From: Eledone cirrhosa
Taxonomy: Eukaryota
Assembly: GCA_964016885.1 (NCBI GenBank)
Contig: OZ024742.1
Span: forward strand, 119,908,001-119,972,000
Reading direction: 5' to 3'
Length of the DNA stretch: 64,000 bases
Shown in pieces: positions 6,428-61,760 of this stretch (position 1 is its first letter; the number at the start of each line of letters is the position of its first letter). Under the pieces are notes generated by a model. That model searched no databases, was not told the DNA's origin, and saw nothing but the letters and a program-made list of their open reading frames with translations. The translations under genes were made by a program, and so were the position numbers.

Positions 6428-6553
6428 CGTTATTCCGGGTTGAATCGGAGGTAACCACAGTAAGTAAGGTACTCAATACATAGCAGAGTATAAAAGTTTT
6501 AATATAGATGAGATTCTACAGGACTAGAACTGTTTCATTCATTAGAAATCATC

Positions 6554-6604
6554 AGATTCCTAATGATTTCTAATGAATGAAACAGTTCTAGTCCTGTAGA
6601 ATCT
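6554..6604 (+). ncRNA. Hammerhead fold with core mutation (CTAATGA) inside a palindrome; the opposite arm has intact CTGATGA
   Basis: Stem I AGATTC/GAATCT, stem II TTC/GAA, GAAA 6579-6582, stem III CAG/CTG, GTA triplet. Confidence 0.6.
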
Positions 6605-6606
6605 CA

Positions 6607-6641
<35 letters not shown>

Positions 6642-7667: not shown

Positions 7668-7707
<40 letters not shown>

Positions 7708-8190
7708 TGTGTGTGTGTGTAGATAAATATATATATAGGTATATATGTATATGTAGATATATATATATATATATATAGGTGTATATATATATATGTATGT
7801 GTATATATGTATGTATATATAGATATATATGTATATATGTGTATATGTATATATGTATGTATATATATATGTATATATATATGTGTATATGTATATATAT
7901 ATGTGTATATGTATATACACAATAATTAAAAATATAAATTAAAATGCGCATACGCACCTCTATAACTATATAGCACACGTACAAATCTTGATAGTTCGCT
8001 CCTTAGTCTTTCCTCTCTCTCTCTTTAGTTGAGCACGTCTCTTTGAGTGGTTTTGGGCTGCCATTTGTAGCAGCTCGTCCCTCAGATACCACTGGTTCAC
8101 TGTCCTATGCACGCTGTCACATCTCTCTGCCGCGTGTTGCAGGACGGTTATCTTATATTTCCTTAGAGTTGTCTGGAATGTATTTGCCTT

Positions 8191-8273
8191 ACACACGCTG
8201 ATGATCCATAGGCACTTCCATTTCAGTCAACAACTTCCTGGCGAAACAGATCTCTTTGGATTTGTACGTGTGT
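8191..8273 (+). ncRNA. Type I hammerhead ribozyme fold
   Basis: Stem I ACACACG/CGTGTGT (7 bp); CTGATGA 8198-8204; stem II CCA/TGG with long loop; GAAA 8243-8246; stem III CAGATC/GATTTG; GTA triplet, predicted cleavage after 8266. Confidence 0.8.
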
Positions 8274-8880
8274 CTTATATATTTATAGAAGGGCATATAT
8301 ACATTTTAATTTATATTTTTAATTATTGTGTGTCTACCCTGCCTCCCATAGGTTATAGATTCCATACACTGGAGGTTTCCCTGTTTTGTTGATGGCACAC
8401 ACTCTCTCTCTCGCTCTCTCTCTTTAGTGTGTTACCCTTTCTACATATTGTATTTTGAAGAGCTCAGGATTCCTTTTCCTTTGAGCACATAATTTACAGG
8501 GAATAACGAGAGTCTATGGCTCCGTTAATTTATCTTGATACATGTATATATATATATATGTGTGTATATATACATATATGTGTGTATAAATATCATCTTG
8601 GTTAAGAGAGTGGGACTGGCTTTGTGCAGTGCCTTTGCTCACTATAAAAGCTTCACGGCACAGGCATTGCTTTATATCTGGAGATCTCTCTACACTTGTT
8701 GTCACATAGTACCATGGGCCCAGCACTATGTGTCAATAATTGTCACAGGTGTAGTGTTTGTACCAGAGTTTTCAAGTCGCTGGCTGGACTAAAAAGTCAC
8801 ACTCGTTCAGCGCATCGGTAGGGGTTCTCCTACATGGATATAAAGTAGTGGCCGTACTCGAAAACGAGTTGGCAGCCACT

Positions 8881-18000: not shown

Positions 18001-21000
18001 ACTACTCCAGCAATGCACAACCTTTCTCAGAAGGTGGACCACAAAATTCATGAGGAAGATTTCAGGGACCATTAGGCAACACAGTAGATCATAAAATATA
18101 CCATGGACCATCACAACTTTAGTGTAAATCCCTGGACTATCTGGTACACATTGTGCATCACTAGACTAGTCCATCACCACAGTCATGAATGGAATATATC
18201 TATTCTTTAAATAATCTTTTCATGAGTATACTTTGTGAGCTTTAAGAGCTAAAAATGTCAATATAAATAAACTGGCTTAATGTAAGCCTACAAAACATTG
18301 TTACCCCATCATTACTTTTATCAGTGGGTGCAGGCATACTGAGTAGTTAAGAAGTTTGCTTTGTAATCATGAGTTTCAAGGTTCAATCCCACTGCATGGC
18401 TTCATGGCCAAGTATCTTTACCATAGCCTTGAGTTGACCCAGACTTTGTGAGTTGAATTAGGTAGATAGAAACTGTATGGAAGCCTGTTGGATGGTCTAT
18501 ACCAGCAATTTAAAGGTCTGGCCTTGTCACATATTGTGTCATGTTGACTCTGCCTGAGAATTATATTAAGGGTACACATGTCTATGGTATACTTCAACCA
18601 TTTAAACATTAATTCATGAGATGAGTGTTCAGTTGATAGAATGACTGAATTCTCACCTTTGAAACCAAGGGAGGGCCTTTATCAGTGTCAGCATTTTACT
18701 GTTTGTTGATTTTGGTCAACTCCAGTATTATCTCACACCATGCCCCACTTCATATCATTTATTTGTATTACATGTCTATGAAAGTGCATTTGTCTTTTTT
18801 GTACATTAAATACATCAGTCAGCAACTTTGATACTCAAGCTATCTCAGCTCATTGGGCTTAATCTGTTGCTCAAATTCATATCTTTTATTAATTTTTGTG
18901 GAAAAAAAGACAAACTATTGTAAATATTATTAAAAAATAATTAAATAAAGTAATGACTTTTAGTTAATGCTTACCTCCACCTTCTCTCTGCGGTTTCAAC
19001 ACATAACTGGAAGGGTTTTCAAGTGCCATACTGACAGCTTCCTCTCCTTCAGGAGTCTTACAGAACATTTAAAAAAAATAAATAAATAAAATATAACTTT
19101 CTCTTTGTTTTTGTATTTGTTTAACAATACTCTTCATGCAAAATCATTTGTTGAAACAGATATTATACTTTGGAAGGGTCATATTGTCAATAAAAACACA
19201 TGCACCAGTTGGATTTTTACTTCAGTTTTATTATTAGTTAGGTATGGTTATTTGTCATCTGTTTACTAAACTAATGGCAGAATGAATTACTGACCTAATT
19301 AATTATAATTGAAATGAAGCTGGTGCATGTTTTTTATTGGCAACATAAGCCTCCTAAAGTACCTTTCTCTTACAGTGTCTTGTAAAAAGAAATTAATTCT
19401 AAATCTAAACATAAAGCTTTCACATTAGTAGTGTACATTGTTTATAAATTCTTTTGATGCCAACCTAGCCAAAAACATATTGGATTCTATGAAACAAAAC
19501 CACCAATTTTAAAGGGTTCCTATTTATATTAAAAGCATACAACATAACTTTATATAAGAACCATATATTTAGTTGCTATCTTAGTAATGATATAACTTTA
19601 ATTTTAGTAAATCCCTCCAAATACTTCATTAATTAATTGAAATGGAGTAGAATATTTCATTAGAAATATGGTCACTAGAGGGTTAAAGAGTATAACGTAT
19701 CTTTTTTTAAATCTTTGTCTATTATAAAACTTGGAAGAACAAGCCTCTTTTAGATATGAATAATTTGTTAGGAAATAGATAGCTATGAAATATTACAATT
19801 TGGTCCAGAAAAGCAAACCTGTTATCTTTTCAGACTAACACAGGCTCTGCTGCACTTTGGGCTGAGGAGGGTAAACTCTCCAAATATCGGTCACTCTCCA
19901 ACAGGTTTCCAGTCAAGCTTGTAGCTGTGGAAACTTCTGGTGTCCTTAAACCTAGGACCACCTCCCTACTTATCATCATCGGTGCAGAATTGGCTAGCCA
20001 CAGGTGTGAGCCTTGCGAGCTGGAATGGCTCTTCCAGCCCATCTCCCTCACCATCGTCTGGGGAAACGCCTTCTCTATTCTGTCCGCCGGAGCTGCGGAG
20101 TGGCCAGCATGTGGGACCCCATTTGCTCATAATAGTGAGAGATGGGGAGGGTTGGAGGGATGGAGGTGATGACAGTGGGAGTTTGGTTTCTCTGTGTTCT
20201 GACCTGGTGTACATGTATGTGTAATTTTACACTTATTTTCCAAGAAAAGACGTTATCGTGTATCATCATCATCATCGTTTAACGTCCGTGTTCCACGCTT
20301 GCATGGGTTTGGACGGGGGTTTTTCCACTTGAGGCAAGAGTGATTGTCTTGCTCGCATAGGACTGTCTGGCAGGTTTTCTACAGTTGGATGCCCTTCCTA
20401 ACACCAACCACATTTACAGTGTGGGTCTGGGAGGTTTTTACTGTGTTACCTACACGGCCACATTACAGCGTGGACTGTGTGTTTTTTTGTCGTGACACCT
20501 ACACGATCTCATTTGTTTGTATATATATATATATTGATAAAATACCTGAGCAGTTTAACAAATCATTCATAATTGATAAAATACCTGAGCAGTTTAACAA
20601 ATCATTCATAATTGATAAAATACCTGAGCAGTTTAACAAATCGTTCATAATTGATAAAATACCTGAGCAGTTTAACAAATCATTCATAATTGATAAAATA
20701 CCTGAGCAGTTTAACAAATCATTCATAATTGATAAAATACCTGAGCAGTTTAACAAATCGTTCATAATTGATAAAATACCTGAGCAGTTTAACAAATCAT
20801 TCATAATTGATAAAATACCTGAGCAGTTTAACAAATCATTCATAATTGATAAAATACCTGAGCAGTTTAACAAATCATTCATAATTGATAAAATACCTGA
20901 GCAGTTTAACAAATCGTTCATAATTGATAAAATACCTGAGCAGTTTAACAAATCATTCATAATTGATAAAATACCTGAGCAGTTTAACAAATCATTCATA

Positions 21001-24000
21001 ATTGATAAAATACCTGAGCAGTTTAACAAATCGTTCATAATTGATAAAATACCTGAGCAGTTTAACAAATCGTTCATAATTGATAAAATACCTGAGCAGT
21101 TTAACAAATCGTTCATAATTGATAAAATACCTGAGCAGTTTAACAAATCGTTCATAATTGATAAAATACCTGAGCAGTTTAACAAATCGTTCATAATTGA
21201 TAAAATACCTGAGCAGTTTAACAAAATCTAAATTATCAGATAGAATTTTAATACAGCTGCTAAAAATTGTTAAAGATTTTTTTTTTTTTTTTTTAAAGTT
21301 AAGTAAAATGCAAAGCATCAAAAGCTAGAAAGTTATAAATATGAATCCATATTATAAATGGAAGTCTTAAAATATTGTAAAAGTCACATACAACCATATC
21401 TTAAATAGGGAAGTTTTAAATTATTCTAGAAGTGACATATTACCATATTTTAAATGGGGAAGTCTTAAATTATTCTAGAAGTGACATATTACCATATTTT
21501 AAATGGGGAAGTCTTAGATTATTCTAGAAGTGACATATTACCATATTTTAAATGGGGAAGTCTTAAATTATTCTAAAAGTGCGATATTACCATATTTTAA
21601 ATGGGGAAGTCTTAGATTATTCTAGAAGTGACATATTACCGTATTTTAAATAGGGAAGTCTTAAATTATTCTAAAAGTGCGATATTACCGTATTTTAAAT
21701 AGGGAAGTCTTAGATTATTCTAGAAGTGATATATTACCATATTTTAAATGGGGAAGTCTTAGATTATTCTAGAAGTGACATATTACCATATTTTAAATGG
21801 GGAAGTCTTAAATTATTCTAAAAGTGCGATATTACCATATTTTAAATGGGGAAGTCTTAAATTATTCTAAAAGTGACATATTACCATTTCCAAGCTGTAT
21901 TGATCTACAAATGTATTTCTTAACCCCTGCACTCGAGATGAATCTGGAATAAATTTTTCCAAAGCTCCAGGACGAGATAGCTCCTGCTGAATTTTTTTGG
22001 TTCCAGCTAAATGATAATTTATAGATGGGCATTTGATAGCAAATGAAAGTTCAATCATTTTGCGAGTATCCCAATCCTGAAAAAAGAGTTAGTTTATGAA
22101 GGTCAATAAATCAATCAGTTTTATTTTATCATTCAAGCAATCAACATATTATTTTTCAGAAGTATCATCTATCAATGTGAGGTCAGAGAAATGGATTGTG
22201 AGGTTCATATTTTTCAAGCCTTGTGAATGTAATATGATATAGCAACACCTAGAGTTTGAAACAGATGTGGTTTTGGTTTCAACAAGAGAGGCAGGCATGG
22301 CTATGAGGTTAAGGAGCTTGCTTCACAATCACATGGTTTCAGCTTTAATCCCATTGCACGGCACCTTGGGCAGGTGTCCTCTACTATAGCTTAGGATGGA
22401 CTAATACCATGTAGTGGAATTTGGTCGATGGAAACTAGAGAATCATCATCATCATCATCGTTTAACGTCCATCTTCCACGCTTGCATGGGTTTGGACGGG
22501 ATTTTTCCCACTTGAGGCAAGATTGGTGGTCCTGCTCGTATAGGACTGTCTGGCAGGGTTTTCTACGGCTGGATGCCCTTCCTAACACCAACCACGTTTA
22601 CAGTGTGGACTGGGAGGTTTTTACTGTGTTACCTACACGGCCACATTACAGCGTGGACTGTGTTTTTTTGTCGTGACACCTACACGACCACTGTATGCTT
22701 TTTGTCATGACACCTACACAACCACTTTACAGTGTAGACTGGGCATCCATTGTTGTGGCTCCAAGATGACCATTTTATAGTGTGGGTTGGGGACATGGGT
22801 GGGGGAGATGCATGGGGAAATAGGGAGGTAGATATAGGGGTGAGGTGATTACAATATGGGAGGTGCATGGAAAGAAAGGTGGTGCATACATTCTATTCAG
22901 TATATTATAGCATTATCAACAATAAATAGACATTTAGATATTTTACCTGTGGTGATTTATAACTAGCAGGTGAGTAACCATCTCTAAAATATACAACAGC
23001 AATTTCTAAACCATTTCTACAAATAAATATAATTGATTATTCAAAAAATGATAACAAAGAAATTAACATGAAATAGCACACTTCAAAACTAATGAAATAT
23101 ATGTACAGTTATGAAGTAAAATGAAGTAAAACTTGTTTTTAATTTTTATGGTGTTTACAAACAGATAAGATGTGATGAAAATAATTTCACCATTAGAACA
23201 AGATGGATAAGGTTTCACAGCGCTAGAATCACTCCTTCATAGTCAGCCTATGAACTTTTCAGTCAACCCTCATAAGGACATTTGTTAAATAGATTTCTGT
23301 TTATAAGCAGCTAAACATTTTATTTAGTAACAAATATAAAATTAGCATCTATGTATGTATATGTGTGATATCTGAATACGTATCCTCCACCTAAACTATT
23401 TTACCCTCCACCTCTTGATCCTGACCAACAGGTTGGAGAATATATTACCCCATAGGATAGCAAGGGAGATGCGCTGGAACAGCCAATCCACCTCGCAGGG
23501 CTCACACCTACGGGTAGCCAACTCCACTATGGTCGCCGTGAGTAGTGATATGGTCCAGGTGAACTATCCAAAAGTTTGTATAACAAAGGCAATGAACGAC
23601 TTTACAGCTGCTTAGGCAGGGAAGTGTTCAGTAGTTGGAAAGAATTAGATCCTGTATAACTTTAAATATGAATAATGACTAAGTTTTCATTCTGCATTCT
23701 TTCTGTCTGATACATTTTCCAATGAAGGTCACTGAGAACTCACTAAGTTAAATAAAATAAGTAATCTAGACCAGATTGACACTTTAAGATACTTCAGTGT
23801 TCTGAGTTCAATACCTGTCATGGCTAACTTTGTTTTTCAGCTTTGAGGATCAATAAAAACATTTATCAAAAATATATTGATTTCAATTAAATCCCTACCA
23901 ATATAATTTGTCCCTCTACATGCTCTGACTACTAAATTGTCAGTGGAAAAATAGCTTACAAAAATTGTATTTTATCCTGAAGGATACATTTGAAAGCTTA

Positions 24001-33000: not shown

Positions 33001-36000
33001 GCATCTCTCTCTCTATATATATATATATACACATGTATGTATATATATATATATATATATATACATACATACATACACGTGTATATCGTATATATAAGGT
33101 AGCTTAGAAGTGTCACTACGAGAGGCTACTAAATGAGGAGAATAAGTGGGAAAAAGTCTGCCCCAAATTGATCCAATAGAGGGACCAGCAGTGCAAGTTG
33201 AAGGTAGTATAATAAGTAAGGCAATCAAAGATATGAAGCCAGGCAAAGCAGCTGGGCCTTCGGAGATAGTTGCTGAAATGCTGAAAGCATCTGGATCGGT
33301 GGGACACACTATGGTCACCCGGATAGTAAACCAAGTCATACAGAATGGGGCACATCATCATTAACTGCTACAAGGGTAAAGGAGATGCCTTAGATAGTGG
33401 AAACTATAGAGGCATTAAATTAATTGACCAGGTCATGAAGGTCACAGAAAGAGTTATAGCGCAACTAATTAGCGAGCGAATTGATCTAGAGGAAATGTAG
33501 TTTGTGTCAGGTAAAAGTATCACAGACGCTCTTTTTCTTGTACGACAATTACAGAAGTTCCTAGCTAAAAGTAAACCCCTATACTTAGCTTTTGTTGACT
33601 TGGAGAAAGCTTTTGACAGAGTCCCCTGCTCAATTATCTGGTGGGCTCTTAGAAAACTGGTGTTAATGAATGGCTTGTGGGAGCTATACAAGCCATGTAT
33701 AAAGAAACAGTCAGCAAGGTTAGAATTAACAACGAATATAGTGAAGAATTTAGCGTAAAAGTTGGTGTTTATCAGGGCTCTGTCCTTAGCCCCCTCCTAT
33801 TTATTATTGCCCTTCAGGCTATAACAGAGGAGTTCAAGACCGGCTGCTTATGGGAACTTCTATATGCAGATGATCTAACGCTCATAGCTGAATCAATGGC
33901 TGAACTGGAGAAGAAATTCCAAACATGGAAGCATGCCTAGAATCAAAAGGCCTTACAATTAACTTGTCTAAGACTAAAGTTCTAGTATGTAGGAAGGAAA
34001 ATAGGGCACTGGTCCCCTCTGGGAAATGGCCATGCTCAGTGTGTAGGAAAGGAGTAAGCAGAAACTCCATTTTATGTCCCAAATGCAAAGTATGGGTGCA
34101 TAAAAGATGTAGTGGGATCACAGGTAAGCTAACTAAGAACATAGATATTATATGTGGCCGGTGCTCAGGTGCAATAAGTAGCAAGTACCCACAGGATACT
34201 AGCTCCTTCCATTGCCCAGATGGTTCTATAGAAATAGTGGACAGCTTCCGTTACCTGGGTAACAAAATCAGTAGTGGTGGTGGGTGCTCTGAAAGTACAG
34301 TAACCAGAGTCAGAACGGGATGGAAAAAGTTCAGAGAGCTTATACCACTATTGGCTGCTAAAGGTTTCTCTCTAAAAATGAAAGGCAGGCTGTATGATAC
34401 CTGCATACGAACAGCAATGTTACATGGCAGTGAGACATGGGAATTGTGTGCAGAAGATCTGCGCAGACTGGAGAGCAACGAAGCTTGCATGTCCATTGGA
34501 TGTGTAATAGTAATATACATGAACGGCAAAGCATAAATGAACTAAGTGAGAAATTAGGAATAAGAGGTATCAGATGCTGTTTACTCGAGAGAAGACTACG
34601 TTGGTATGGTCACATGATGCGCATGAAGGACGACAGCTATATAAAAAAGTGCAGGGCGATCAAAATTGATGGAAGCTACGGAGTAGGCAGACCCAGAAAA
34701 ACCTGGGACGATTTGATAAATTCCAACTTTACACACTTACACCTCTCCAAGACAATGTCACTGGACCGAGAACTTTGGCGCTATGCAGTAATACAGAAGA
34801 CCCGCCTTGCCTAAGTACAAAGCGAAACCTACAGGCACCTCTTAACTAAAAATACACCCCATCCCACTACCCCCACCCCTTTCTCTGTAAAGTTATGTTG
34901 GTACCACAACATCCAGTCCTAAATAAATAAGGTTGTGTAGGTGTCATGACAAAAAAACACACTAGTCCACGCTATAATGTGGCCCTGTAGGTAACACGGT
35001 AAAAACCTTCCTGTCCACACTGTAAATGTGGTTGGTGTTAGGAAGGGCATCCAGCCGTAGAAAACCTGCCAGACAGTCCTATACGAGCAAGACAACCAAT
35101 CTTGCCTCAAGTGGGGTAATTCCCGTCTAAACCCATGCTAGCGTGGAAGATAGACGTTAAACGATGATGATGATGATATATGGATTATAAAGAAAAATAT
35201 ATGCACATCATGCATGCATAGTGAACAATTCTTTATGCTATGAATTCAAATTCCAGATGTCAACTTTGACCTTCATTTTTGGGGGTTGATAAAATACAGA
35301 ACTTGTCCAGGTCAAGTTTGTAGAACTGATAGGACTTTGGACAAGATGTTCTTGTAGCAAGCTACTTTCCTTTGGTGCATTGATACTCTGTCCGTGCATG
35401 ATTTGGCTAACTTAGGCCAATCGTTAGCTGCGCACGGATATGTATTTCAACTTCCACCCAAACGGAGAATTCCCCGCTTCTTTTAATAAATTCATTCTCT
35501 TGCAACTTTGACTGTGGTAAGGTAAACAACCATTTTGCTTTTGCTCCGCAACCATTAACCAAAATGTAATACAACATGTAACCACGGCCTGTCCAACACC
35601 TCAGCCAGTAGACCGTGCCATCTGCAATCTTAATTTGTTTGATTCATTTGTTTTGGCATGCCAGCCCAGCTCAATCCAGTTCTTTGTTAATAAATTATGT
35701 AAAAACCTGTTACAACAAACTACATATTGTCGATTTTATTATTATTACATGGCATAATATTATTTAACAGTTAAACTAGTTACTATTACTTGCTGCTATA
35801 TTGGTGACCTCTGTTGATACAATACAAACTACAAAGACAAATAATTGTTTCTACTTTAGGCACAAGGCCAGCAATTACCCAGTGCATTACTGGTACTTTA
35901 TTTTATCGACCCCGTAAGGATGAAAGGCAAAGTCAACCTCGGCGGGATTTGAACTCAGATCGTAAAGGGACGTAACTATGCTGGAAAGCATGGCGTCCGA

Positions 36001-53625: not shown

Positions 53626-54349
53626 GGTGGATTGAAGATAGAAAGTTATGCTGGTATCAATTTGTTTTCCTTAGTTAGTTAATATGAATGTCACTCTTAA
53701 ATAATAAATCAAAATTATTATTTCAATCATCATCATCACCATTTTACGTCTGTTCTTCCACGCTAGCATGGGTTAGATGGGTTGTCCTGTTGTGGGCAAT
53801 GTCAGGTCGGGTGACCTTGTCTTGCTCATACAGGAACTGATTTTGGCTTCGTTTCTACAGCTGGATGGCCTTCCTAACACCAACCTCATTTACAGTGAGT
53901 GCTGGGTGCTTTTTTTCCGTGGCGCCTACACGTTGACTTTACAGTGTGGGCTGGGTGCTTTTTTGTCGGGACACCTACACGACCACTTTGCAGTGGGAGA
54001 TGGTGGGGGCATATTGTCTATATGCTTCAGCTTGTACCCTTAAATTGTTTTTACTATTTAGACATGATATCATTTGTTGTTGTTACTTGTGTGTGTGTAA
54101 GTTTCTATTGTGAGCTGATATAATGATGTTAGGAAGAAGATAAAACATTGTAACACCCCAAAAGACCAATAGTAAACTGAAATAAATTAAATGAATTTGG
54201 AGCATGTCTAGCATAATATTGGGTAACATGAATATTTTATTATATAATTTTTTTGTAAACAAGGAAAACATTACATATCCATAATTGCACAAACACGAGT
54301 TTTGTTTTGTCTATAGAATAGTTTGAAAATTTGTCATTTGAATCATTAA

Positions 54350-54814
54350 TCTCAAAGGGAGACAAGAGAGACTGTTCCAATTATAGAGGGATCTCCTTGT
54401 TAAGCCTCCCCAGTAAAGTCTATGCTAAGTGTCTGGCAAAGAGATGCAGGGAGATTGTTGAGTCCAAGCTAGCTGATGAACAGTGTGGTTTTCTCCCCAG
54501 ACGCAGCACAGTCGACCAAATATTCACACTGCGGCAGGTCTTCGAGAAATTGTGGGAATATTGTCAAGAGGTATATTCTTGTTTTGTCGACCTTGAAAAG
54601 GCATATGACCGCATTACTCGGGACCTGCTGTGGAAGGTTCTGCTGGAGTATGGGATTGATGATCAGCTCCTTGCTGCCATGATGTCTTTATATGAATGCA
54701 CGAGTATTTGTGTTCAGGTAAATGGTGCTAAATCAAAACCATTCAATGTGGGAGTCAGACTCTGCCAAGGGTGTGTACAGTCACCTCTCCTGCTCATTAT
54801 TTACATGAACAGGA
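54350..54814 (+). mobile_element. RTE RT fragment interrupted by a SINE
   Basis: KGDKRDCSNYRGISLLSLPSKVY; EQCGF; STVDQIFTLRQ; FVDLEKAYD; QGCVQSPLL. Confidence 0.88.
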
Positions 54815-55049
54815 GTTCAAATCCCACCGAGGTTCACTTTGCCTTTCATCCTTACGGGGTCAATAAAATAAAGTACCAGTAATGTACTGGGGTAATTGCT
54901 GGCCTTGTGCCAAATGTAGAAACAATTATTTACATGAACAGGACTGACATACGCAGCCGGATTGGAAGTGGTATCATGACTGGTGGGTGTACAATGTCCA
55001 TGTAACCCTTTTTGTAGACATGAATGACAACTTTGAAATGGTTCTTTTA

Positions 55050-59440: not shown

Positions 59441-61760
59441 TTGGCTTCTGTAGGATTTAAATTCAGAATGTAGAGTACCAGAACAAATACAACATAGCAT
59501 TTGTCCAGCTGTTTAATAGTTCTGCTAACCCACCACCCTAATAATAATAATTGTTTCTACTTTAGGCACAAGGCCAGCAATTATCCAGTGCATTACTGGT
59601 ACTTTATTTTATCGCCCCCGTAAGGATGAAAGGCAAAGTCAACCTCGGCGGGATTTGAACTCAGATCGTAAAGGGACGTAACTACGCTGGAAAGCATGAC
59701 GTCCGACCCTCTACCGATACTGCCAATCCACCACCCTAATAATAATAATGGTTTCTGATTTAGGCACAAGGTCAATTTTTGGGGAAGGGAAAGTCTATTA
59801 TATCGACCCCAATGCATTAAGGGTATTCTATTTTATTGATCCCAAAGGAAGAAAGACAAAGCTAATCTTGGCGGGAATTGAACTGAGAATGCAAAGGGCC
59901 GTAACTCTATGCTGCGAAGCAGGGTGTTCGGCGCTCTACCAATACTGCCAATTCATCGCGCTAATAATAATAATTGTTTCTACTTTAGGCACAGGGCCAG
60001 CATTTTGAAGGTGAGGGGAACGTCTATTAAATAAACCACAGTTCATTACTGGTACTTATCAAATCCCGTTAGGATGAAAGGCAAAGCTAACCTCAGCGTC
60101 ATTTGAACTCGGAACGTATAGGGCTGTAACTCAATGCTGTAAAGCATGTTGCCCGGCACTCTACTGTTTATGCCAAAGGTCAGTGGGTTGGCAGAATTGG
60201 TAGAGCGTCGAAAGAACATAATAATAATTGTTTAAAAATGAGGAACAAGGCCAGTAGTTGTTTGGGAGAAGGAAAAGTTATGTCGATCGTAGTATTTGAC
60301 TCGTACTTTATTTGATTAAATCCATCAGGGTGAAAGGCAAAGATTATCTCGATGGGGTTTCCACTCAGAACAGAAAATCATAAATACCACAAAGTATATT
60401 GTCTGACTCTCTACCAATACACTACCCTATAATAATAATTGTTTCTACTTTTGGCACACGACCAGCAATTATCCCAGTACATTACTGGTACTTTATTTCA
60501 TTGACACCATAAGAATGAAAGGCAAAGTTAACCTTGGCGGGATTTGAACTCAGACCATAAAGGGCCGTAACTATGCTGCAAAGCATGGCATCCGACCCTC
60601 TACTGTTTCTGCCAATTAATAATAATAATAATAATAATAATTTCATTTATTAGCCACAATACAAAGACAGGGACAGTGGGGGTTTACAATAATAATAATA
60701 ATAATAATTGTTTCTACTTTAGGCACAAGGCCAGCAATTACCCAGTGCATTACTGGTACTTTATTTTATCGACCCCGTAAGGATGAAAGGCAAAGTTAAA
60801 CCTGGGCGGGATTTGAACTCAGATCGTAAAGGGACGTAACTCTATGCTGGAAAGCATGGCGTCCGACCCTCTACTGTTTCTGTCAATTAATAATAATAAT
60901 AATAATAATAATGGTTTCTGATTTAGTCACATGGCCAACAATTTTGGGGGAAGAGAAAGTTGATTAAATTGACCCCAGTTTGTTACTGGTACTTTATTTT
61001 ATAGACCCCGTAAGGATGAAAGGCAAAGCTAACCTGGGCAGTATTTGAACTCAAAATGTAAAGGGCCGTAACTATATGCTGCAGAGCATGTCATCCGATG
61101 CTCTACCAATTCTACCAATCCACTGCTCTTCAATAATGGCTTCTGATTTAGGTACAAGACCAGCAATTTCAAGGAAGAGGAAAGTCGATTAAATCGACTC
61201 CTGTGTGTTACTGGAACTTTATTTTATTGATTTGGCAAAGATGAAAGATAGCCTCAGTGGATTTACACTGTAACTCTATGCTGCTAAGCATGTTGTCCAT
61301 TGTTCTATTGATACTGCCAATTCAAATAATTCAATAATAATATTAGGATTTCTGATTTAGGCACAAGGCCAACAATTTGAGGGAGGGAAAAGTCGATTAA
61401 ATTGACACCAGTAGATTACTGGTACTATATTTTATCAACTCTGTAAAGATGAAAGGCAAAGCTAATCTTGGTAGGATTTGAACTCAGAACGTAAAGGGTT
61501 GTAACTGTATGCTGCAAAGTATAGTGTCTGACACTCTACTGATACTGCCAATCCACCGCCCTAAATTATAATAATTGTTTCTACTTTAGGCACAAGGCCA
61601 GCAATTATCCCAGTGTATTACTGGTGCTTTATTTTATCGACGCCGTAAGGATGAAAGGCAAAGTTAAACTTGGCGGGATTTGAAGTCAGACTATAAAGGG
61701 ACGTAACTCTATGTTGCAAAGCATGGCACCAGACCCTCTACCGATACTGCCAATCCAATC
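59441..61760 (-). repeat. Head-to-tail cluster of ~11 family-A SINEs separated by (AAT)n
   Basis: Repeated ttgtttctact..ggcacaaggccagc...ggatgaaaggcaaag...ggatttgaactcag units, almost all in one orientation. Confidence 0.92.

Follow-up and report, generated by a model that had tools for sequence, protein, structure and literature searches.

A type I hammerhead motif in a dispersed 547-nt repeat of the Eledone cirrhosa genome, likely a parasite of Penelope-like elements

The hammerhead motif and its setting

The DNA analysed, here called the window, is a stretch of 64,000 nt from Eledone cirrhosa (assembly GCA_964016885.1, contig OZ024742.1, positions 119,908,001 to 119,972,000 of the forward strand), and all positions below are counted from its first letter. 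At 7911-8540 the window holds one copy of a dispersed, closed, non-coding repeat unit of 547 nt, and it is within this copy that a hammerhead motif is situated. Two (TA)n-type microsatellites, at 7671-7917 and 8543-8593, form the left and right flanks of the insertion target. The unit itself, which we interpret as a non-coding retrozyme or non-autonomous Penelope-like element (PLE) unit, lies on the plus strand at 7985-8540, that is, one full unit (7985-8531) followed by 9 nt of the next, and is preceded on the minus strand by an inverted 5' piece of the unit (7911-7987) that overlaps the forward copy by 3 nt. The unit is closed in that 7985-7993 recurs as 8532-8540, the unit junction, which is also the main 3' end preferred by the family; a second preferred 3' end (8448-8456) is read through in the window copy. 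The order of microsatellite, inverted arm, unit plus 9 nt, and microsatellite fits that of the family as a whole.

The motif occupies 8191-8273 on the plus strand. Stem I (ACACACG, 8191-8197 : 8267-8273) has 7 bp and leads into an intact CTGATGA core (8198-8204) and position 10.1 (8205), which is U here and A in 108 of 142 copies. The stem II segment (8206-8242) follows and, as a sequence-only reading of this DNA had already observed, stem II opens with a U8205.C8242 mismatch, C11.1 being 8242, and carries a long loop; the mismatch is followed by three base pairs (8206-8208 : 8239-8241) and a loop II of 30 nt. The remaining segment (8243-8266) comprises GAAA (8243-8246), stem III with its CUUU loop, and the GUA triplet, with cleavage predicted after 8266. 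Stem III had been recognised in that reading and given 6 bp; it is present, with 8 pairs (8246-8253 : 8258-8265) when A15.1-U16.1 and two G.U pairs are counted, and a stem of this strength suffices without a dimer, as had been supposed.

A hammerhead descriptor run over both strands of the window returned 8191-8273 as its sole match, and a match of equal quality occurred in none of 100 Markov-resampled windows (a loose match in 6 of 100). With the core, GAAA, GUA and a 7-bp stem I all in place, the type I hammerhead motif is genuine and beyond chance, as the sequence-only reading had held. The Rfam check suggested alongside it left the motif without a match: nothing in the window reached a gathering score, and nothing at E<=10 was returned over 8191-8273.

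The repeat unit and its copies

Comparison of 8040-8340 with the 3.0-Gb genome of the same species gave 1913 candidates, the best 40 of which were scored. Exact patterns returned 393 matches genome-wide for the core and the start of stem III, 480 for the hammerhead region from the flank to stem III, and 1179 for a 21-mer at the 3' end, with 0-1 matches for the controls. The 129 family loci discussed here, from which three overlapping loci were left out, consist of the top-40 BLAST subset and the first listed pattern matches from two contigs, and are not a random sample. In 64 of them the sequence reads through from the end of the unit into its start, crossing the junction, and copies are mostly 1-1.5 units long. 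Adjacent full units occur at two loci, one a trimer (L157/L219), with substitutions in its hammerhead cores, and the other a dimer (L046/L220). Mean identity among 33 full units is 89%. The short unit is non-coding, a 119-aa frame over it having no Pfam match, and carries one type I hammerhead. Folded as a circle it is moderately structured (z -2.3; 56% paired, a fraction equal to that of shuffles), and the consensus fold is branched. Our own covariance model found no second copy of the family in the window and did not reach the sister families described below.

The sequence-only reading had placed the motif in an island bounded by an inverted repeat. The inverted repeat is real, 7911-7987 being the reverse complement of 8259-8337 at 85% identity; its extent differs from that first given, and 8259 lies on the 3' strand of stem III and not in its loop. 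The supposed island is a copy, here running on to 8540, of a retro-repeat present hundreds of times, and the arm is no boundary but a 5' inversion in a family of which 71 of 129 loci have an inverted neighbouring piece. Nor does any meaning attach to the start of the arm near stem III: 9 of 165 5' ends fall within 8255-8280, in a roughly flat spread, and the proximity is a coincidence. As there is no pile-up of 5' breakpoints at the cleavage site, cleavage is without a footprint.

The window copy is a monomer of the unit. It differs at 26 of 552 sites (4.7%) from the majority of its eight closest full copies, and changes private to it affect position 10.1 and the eighth pair of stem I. Because of this divergence, the private U at 10.1 and the misfolding predicted below, monomeric cleavage, for which the motif had been put forward as the best candidate in the window, is doubtful; taken singly, the copy would be an ordinary decayed insertion, aged and probably dead. 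Its inverted arm is 93-97% identical to other copies against 85% to its own forward partner, a discrepancy hinting that another template, or another insertion, was involved. When arms were compared across the family (loci L007, L020, L173 and L176 versus L011, L153 and L183), those of 3 of 11 adjacent pairs were mutual nearest neighbours within their locus, the remainder matching different subfamilies; this mixing suggests either that two RNA templates contributed to each insertion or that older copies received later insertions.

Selection on the hammerhead across copies

Among 110 copies not picked on the core, shared variants occupy 33 of 113 positions and none of the 12 positions of the strict core (Fisher p=0.012, the positions not being independent of one another), while position 7 varies among T, G, A and C. 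Because shared subfamily variants avoid the core, with the exception of the free position 7, this pattern indicates that the hammerhead motif was under selection. The core CUGANGA, GAAA and UH stand intact and in type I order in 113 of 142 copies. The sequence-only reading had looked to homologues for preservation of the pairings, and the homologues do keep them: 90.3% of stem cells are paired, stem I reaches at least 7 bp in 91 of 142 copies and shows A-U/G-C covariation at 8195:8269, and stem III is nearly invariant, partly owing to the choice of copies. The first stem II pair, 10.1:11.1, is A.C in 96 of the 142 copies, C.C in 20, G-C in 5 and U.C in 2, these last being the two copies with U at 10.1; the usual, though not obligatory, G10.1-C11.1 pair is missing in the U.C window copy. 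A U.U at this pair is a known active natural variant, as described in PMC3088659.

Predicted pairing of loop II with the 5' flank

The long loop II had been regarded as a mere departure from the canonical form. Its segment 8210-8231 is complementary to the 5' flank of the hammerhead (8168-8189), with which it is predicted to form three helices, 8184-8189 : 8210-8215 (the inner helix), 8173-8180 : 8219-8226, and 8168-8171 : 8228-8231, comprising 18 pairs. The duplex of the window copy is worth -22.5 kcal/mol, compared with -6.4 +/- 3.0 in 77 other segments along the unit. Every one of 200 swaps of flank and loop was outdone by the native combinations (134 of the 142 copies being long enough), and 92.9% of 2506 duplex cells over the 142 copies are paired, as against 28-47% when the strands are slid; RNAalifold recovers the duplex unprompted. 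Changes on both sides affect 35 duplex cells versus 13 in shuffled data, but the number of pairs showing such changes, four, is not above the shuffles (422/500), only one of the four has many, and at 8174:8225 pairing is lost in 60 of 140 copies. The covariation of the duplex rests on few subfamily changes, most of them carried by the inner helix; the outer helices are conserved like the inner one (93.1% vs 92.6%), and the shared changes mostly preserve pairing as G.U on the plus strand. These comparisons indicate that the long loop II is not decay and that its ability to pair with the 5' flank has been conserved.

Other structures were tried and set aside. A pattern built on the idea that a short canonical stem II had acquired loop II by insertion gave 0 matches. 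An outer register of 8174-8178 : 8216-8220, compensatory in 66 copies, failed in 142 (8176:8218 being paired in 89 of 136), and 8173-8180 : 8219-8226 was adopted instead. An extension of stem II by 8210-8212 : 8234-8236 competes with the better-kept flank helix.

One nucleotide separates the duplex from the tip of stem I and one from that of stem II, and the core bases all lie outside it. Zipped in full, the duplex would exclude stem II and act as a lock, because by a geometric estimate just 7 nt would remain to reach stem II; formed by itself, the inner helix might serve as an activating pseudoknot, and the activating pseudoknots described in PMC3088659 occupy a matching position. In folding with no pseudoknot term, the active fold of the window copy lies 8.5 kcal/mol above the ensemble when the flank is left off and 13.1 kcal/mol above it when the flank is included. 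Of the 142 copies, 75 have intact stems, and for these the corresponding medians are 7.0 and 9.3. The fold of the consensus circle shows the blocked state too.

Insertion footprint and Penelope-like elements

The 3' ends of copies cluster at two sites, about 8453 and 8540, while 5' ends are scattered along the unit. Ends that do not continue into a further unit enter a microsatellite in 79 of 85 cases at 8540 and in 81 of 99 cases at 8453, as against 11.7% of random positions. Partial tandems, inverted 5'-truncated copies and a bias toward microsatellites are hallmarks of PLEs (as described in PMC8557442), two internal start sites of reverse transcription (RT) and nicking of AT-rich DNA are reported in vitro for a PLE (PMC11167929), and PLE insertions are mostly 5'-truncated, scattering hammerheads (PMC4209133). 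Partial tandems, 5' inversions, fixed ends and microsatellite targets amount to a PLE insertion signature, and the family has likely been spread by PLE machinery. A reading of the repeat as a MITE or DNA transposon was rejected because the arms vary and are internal pieces, not terminal repeats.

Candidate ORFs of PLE type number in the tens of thousands in the genome, two families yielding 27,737 and 53,490 first-look candidates; GIY-YIG matches in these families are weak and fall under the Pfam cut-off. A search for an autonomous partner through 60 loci from two PLE families revealed no sequence in common with the unit, eight stretches between spaced copies (up to a few kb apart) contained no PLE ORF, and the unit lacks the RT and GIY-YIG ORF that an autonomous PLE has between its repeats. 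A young, high-copy PLE-type family (L091-L120; 92-98% amino-acid identity, 150 scored) has a long C/A-rich 3' region, with a minimal hammerhead about 1.4 kb past the ORF in 12 of 30 loci.

Comparison with known systems

The class of animal retrozymes and its link to PLEs have already been published (PMC7229834; PMC7761336; preprint 10.64898/2026.07.22.740005). Judged from its sequence, the unit has the testable genomic attributes of two classes, the animal non-LTR retrozymes and the non-autonomous PLEs. Like the animal non-LTR retrozymes described in PMC7229834 and in that preprint, it is non-coding, with GC below 50% and one type I hammerhead; it occurs as monomers, dimers and multimers in a genome that also holds PLEs; its 547 nt fall inside the 51-972 bp range given in the preprint; and among them, too, helix II can begin with a mismatch (U.U in axolotl). 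It is unlike them in consisting mostly of dispersed 1-1.5-mers with 5' inversions and not of arrays, and in having no detected PLE homology. Its hammerhead, moreover, is predicted to be self-blocked, whereas by the account in PMC7229834 the hammerhead stays free in most circles of animal retrozymes, some of those from mussels excepted.

With EN+ PLEs and their non-autonomous derivatives, as characterised in PMC8557442 and PMC11167929, the unit shares partial tandems, inversion of a 5'-truncated copy, insertion at microsatellites, a pair of internal 3' ends at fixed positions, and a hammerhead within the repeat. It differs in having no ORF, in 3' ends 87 nt apart as opposed to a tail of 30-40 nt, and in a stem III that is a full 8-pair hairpin in place of a minimal palindromic one. 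The pseudoknotted hammerheads of PMC3088659 likewise combine a short stem II with Watson-Crick pairing between loop II and sequence adjacent to stem I, but their pseudoknots have 4-6 bp whereas the duplex of the unit has 18 pairs and in full would exclude stem II, and their first stem II pair is G-C or U.U where that of the unit is A.C. Viroids and plant LTR retrozymes, according to PMC7229834, block their hammerhead, and in the unit too the ribozyme is predicted to be silenced by complementary unit sequence; unlike them, the unit has a type I and not a type III hammerhead and no LTR, PBS or PPT, and its block would work via loop II, leaving core bases unpaired.

No published description of the 547-nt family was found in the literature, although it could be catalogued in Repbase, Dfam or bioRxiv supplements; a text search of preprint 10.64898/2026.07.22.740005 returned no sampled mollusc. 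That animal retrozymes ride on PLEs has been a proposal from co-occurrence and terminal-repeat homology, to which the present family adds, for a closed unit bearing a hammerhead, the marks left by insertion, namely inverted 5' pieces, microsatellites as targets and two internal 3' ends at fixed positions. A lock formed by the flank and loop II would moreover be a testable answer to the question, named as a gap in PMC7229834, of how animal retrozyme RNA avoids cutting itself.

Origin and mode of spread

The best explanation, to which we assign a probability of about 0.7, is that a dispersed non-coding repeat of 547 nt, likely a PLE parasite, i.e. an animal retrozyme, has this motif as its type I hammerhead, and that the window copy is aged and probably inactive. 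Under this scenario multimeric source copies would be transcribed, and an occasional hammerhead cut would yield unit-length RNA, which may be circularised. The long flank-loop II hairpin would keep the ribozyme mostly off, and the template would therefore stay intact. The reverse transcriptase/endonuclease of a PLE would nick (TA)n DNA, copying would start internally at 8453 or 8540 and pass the cleavage site and the junction, and a second priming event would give the inverted 5' arm.

One might instead suppose that, in the same element, the flank-loop II pairing is an activating pseudoknot conferring efficient monomeric cleavage, the inner helix, perhaps together with 8173-8180 : 8219-8226, bracing stems I and II and offsetting the 10.1:11.1 mismatch. 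The placement of the duplex next to the tips of both stems with the core bases free, and the concentration of covariation in the inner helix, accord with this; so does the account in PMC3088659, by which about 40% of natural hammerheads have a pseudoknot between stems I and II and a stem II of one pair can function with one. Against it, the outer helices are as well conserved as the inner, the 7 nt left by the full duplex are too short by the geometric estimate, and a longer flank favours the long hairpin more (in folding without a pseudoknot term), so that we hold this possible but somewhat unlikely. Less likely again is a two-state switch, in which the selected 18-pair duplex would lock when zipped while the inner helix braces, timing cleavage in a PLE-driven rolling-circle cycle.

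Quite unlikely, in our estimation, is the proposal that the repeats are no more than the 3' terminal repeats of an autonomous PLE that escaped the search, truncated and duplicated on the spot, with no independent short RNA. PLE insertions, being mostly 5'-truncated, do leave dispersed hammerheads (PMC4209133), and about 130 of more than 480 loci were covered here; yet a shared ORF never appears upstream of 7985, where in 64 of 129 loci, spread over every chromosome sampled, the sequence is the 3' end of the unit itself, and a full-unit trimer exists. Just as unlikely is the notion of the hammerhead as a relic that does not cleave, with the complementarity of loop II surviving as a neutral trace of an old inverted duplication. 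The non-canonical 10.1:11.1 pair and the predicted misfolding would suit a relic, hammerhead activity is dispensable to PLE insertion in vitro according to PMC11167929, and eight of nine Xenopus retrozyme dimers tested in preprint 10.64898/2026.07.22.740005 were non-cleaving; a relic would, however, sit poorly with shared variants that avoid the core while position 7 changes freely, and with duplex changes that mostly preserve G.U pairing on the plus strand.

Sister hammerhead families and other features of the window

A second pattern gave 507 matches to sister motifs. At 30 loci these keep the core and have stems I, II and III of different sequence, the first stem II pair being U.U in 18 and A-U in 6. 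A set of PLE-type retrozymes seems to reside in this genome. Further short hammerhead repeat families with inverted pieces were seen at loci L061-L090, L068 and L136, their tandem periods being about 220 (L068), 310 (L136) and 320 nt. The window itself has, at 6508-6610, a head-to-head inverted pair of a sister hammerhead repeat within (TA)n, of the same family as L061, L068 and L084, with an intact core start in the minus-strand copy (6532-6555) and CTAATGA in the plus-strand copy (6560-6583).

Elsewhere in the window, two clean minisatellites lie side by side at 20533-21225 (39 nt x 17.8, 98%) and 21347-21887 (49 nt x 11.1, 91%), and a 290-aa open frame at 25364-26233 matches DDE_Tnp_1_7, a piggyBac-type transposase (E 2.8e-58). 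LINE fragments are found at 33904-34811 (PHD finger) and 54322-54879 (RVT_1), and a cluster of diverged tandem repeat units of 225-433 nt, which we take to be a SINE-like repeat, at 59617-61754.
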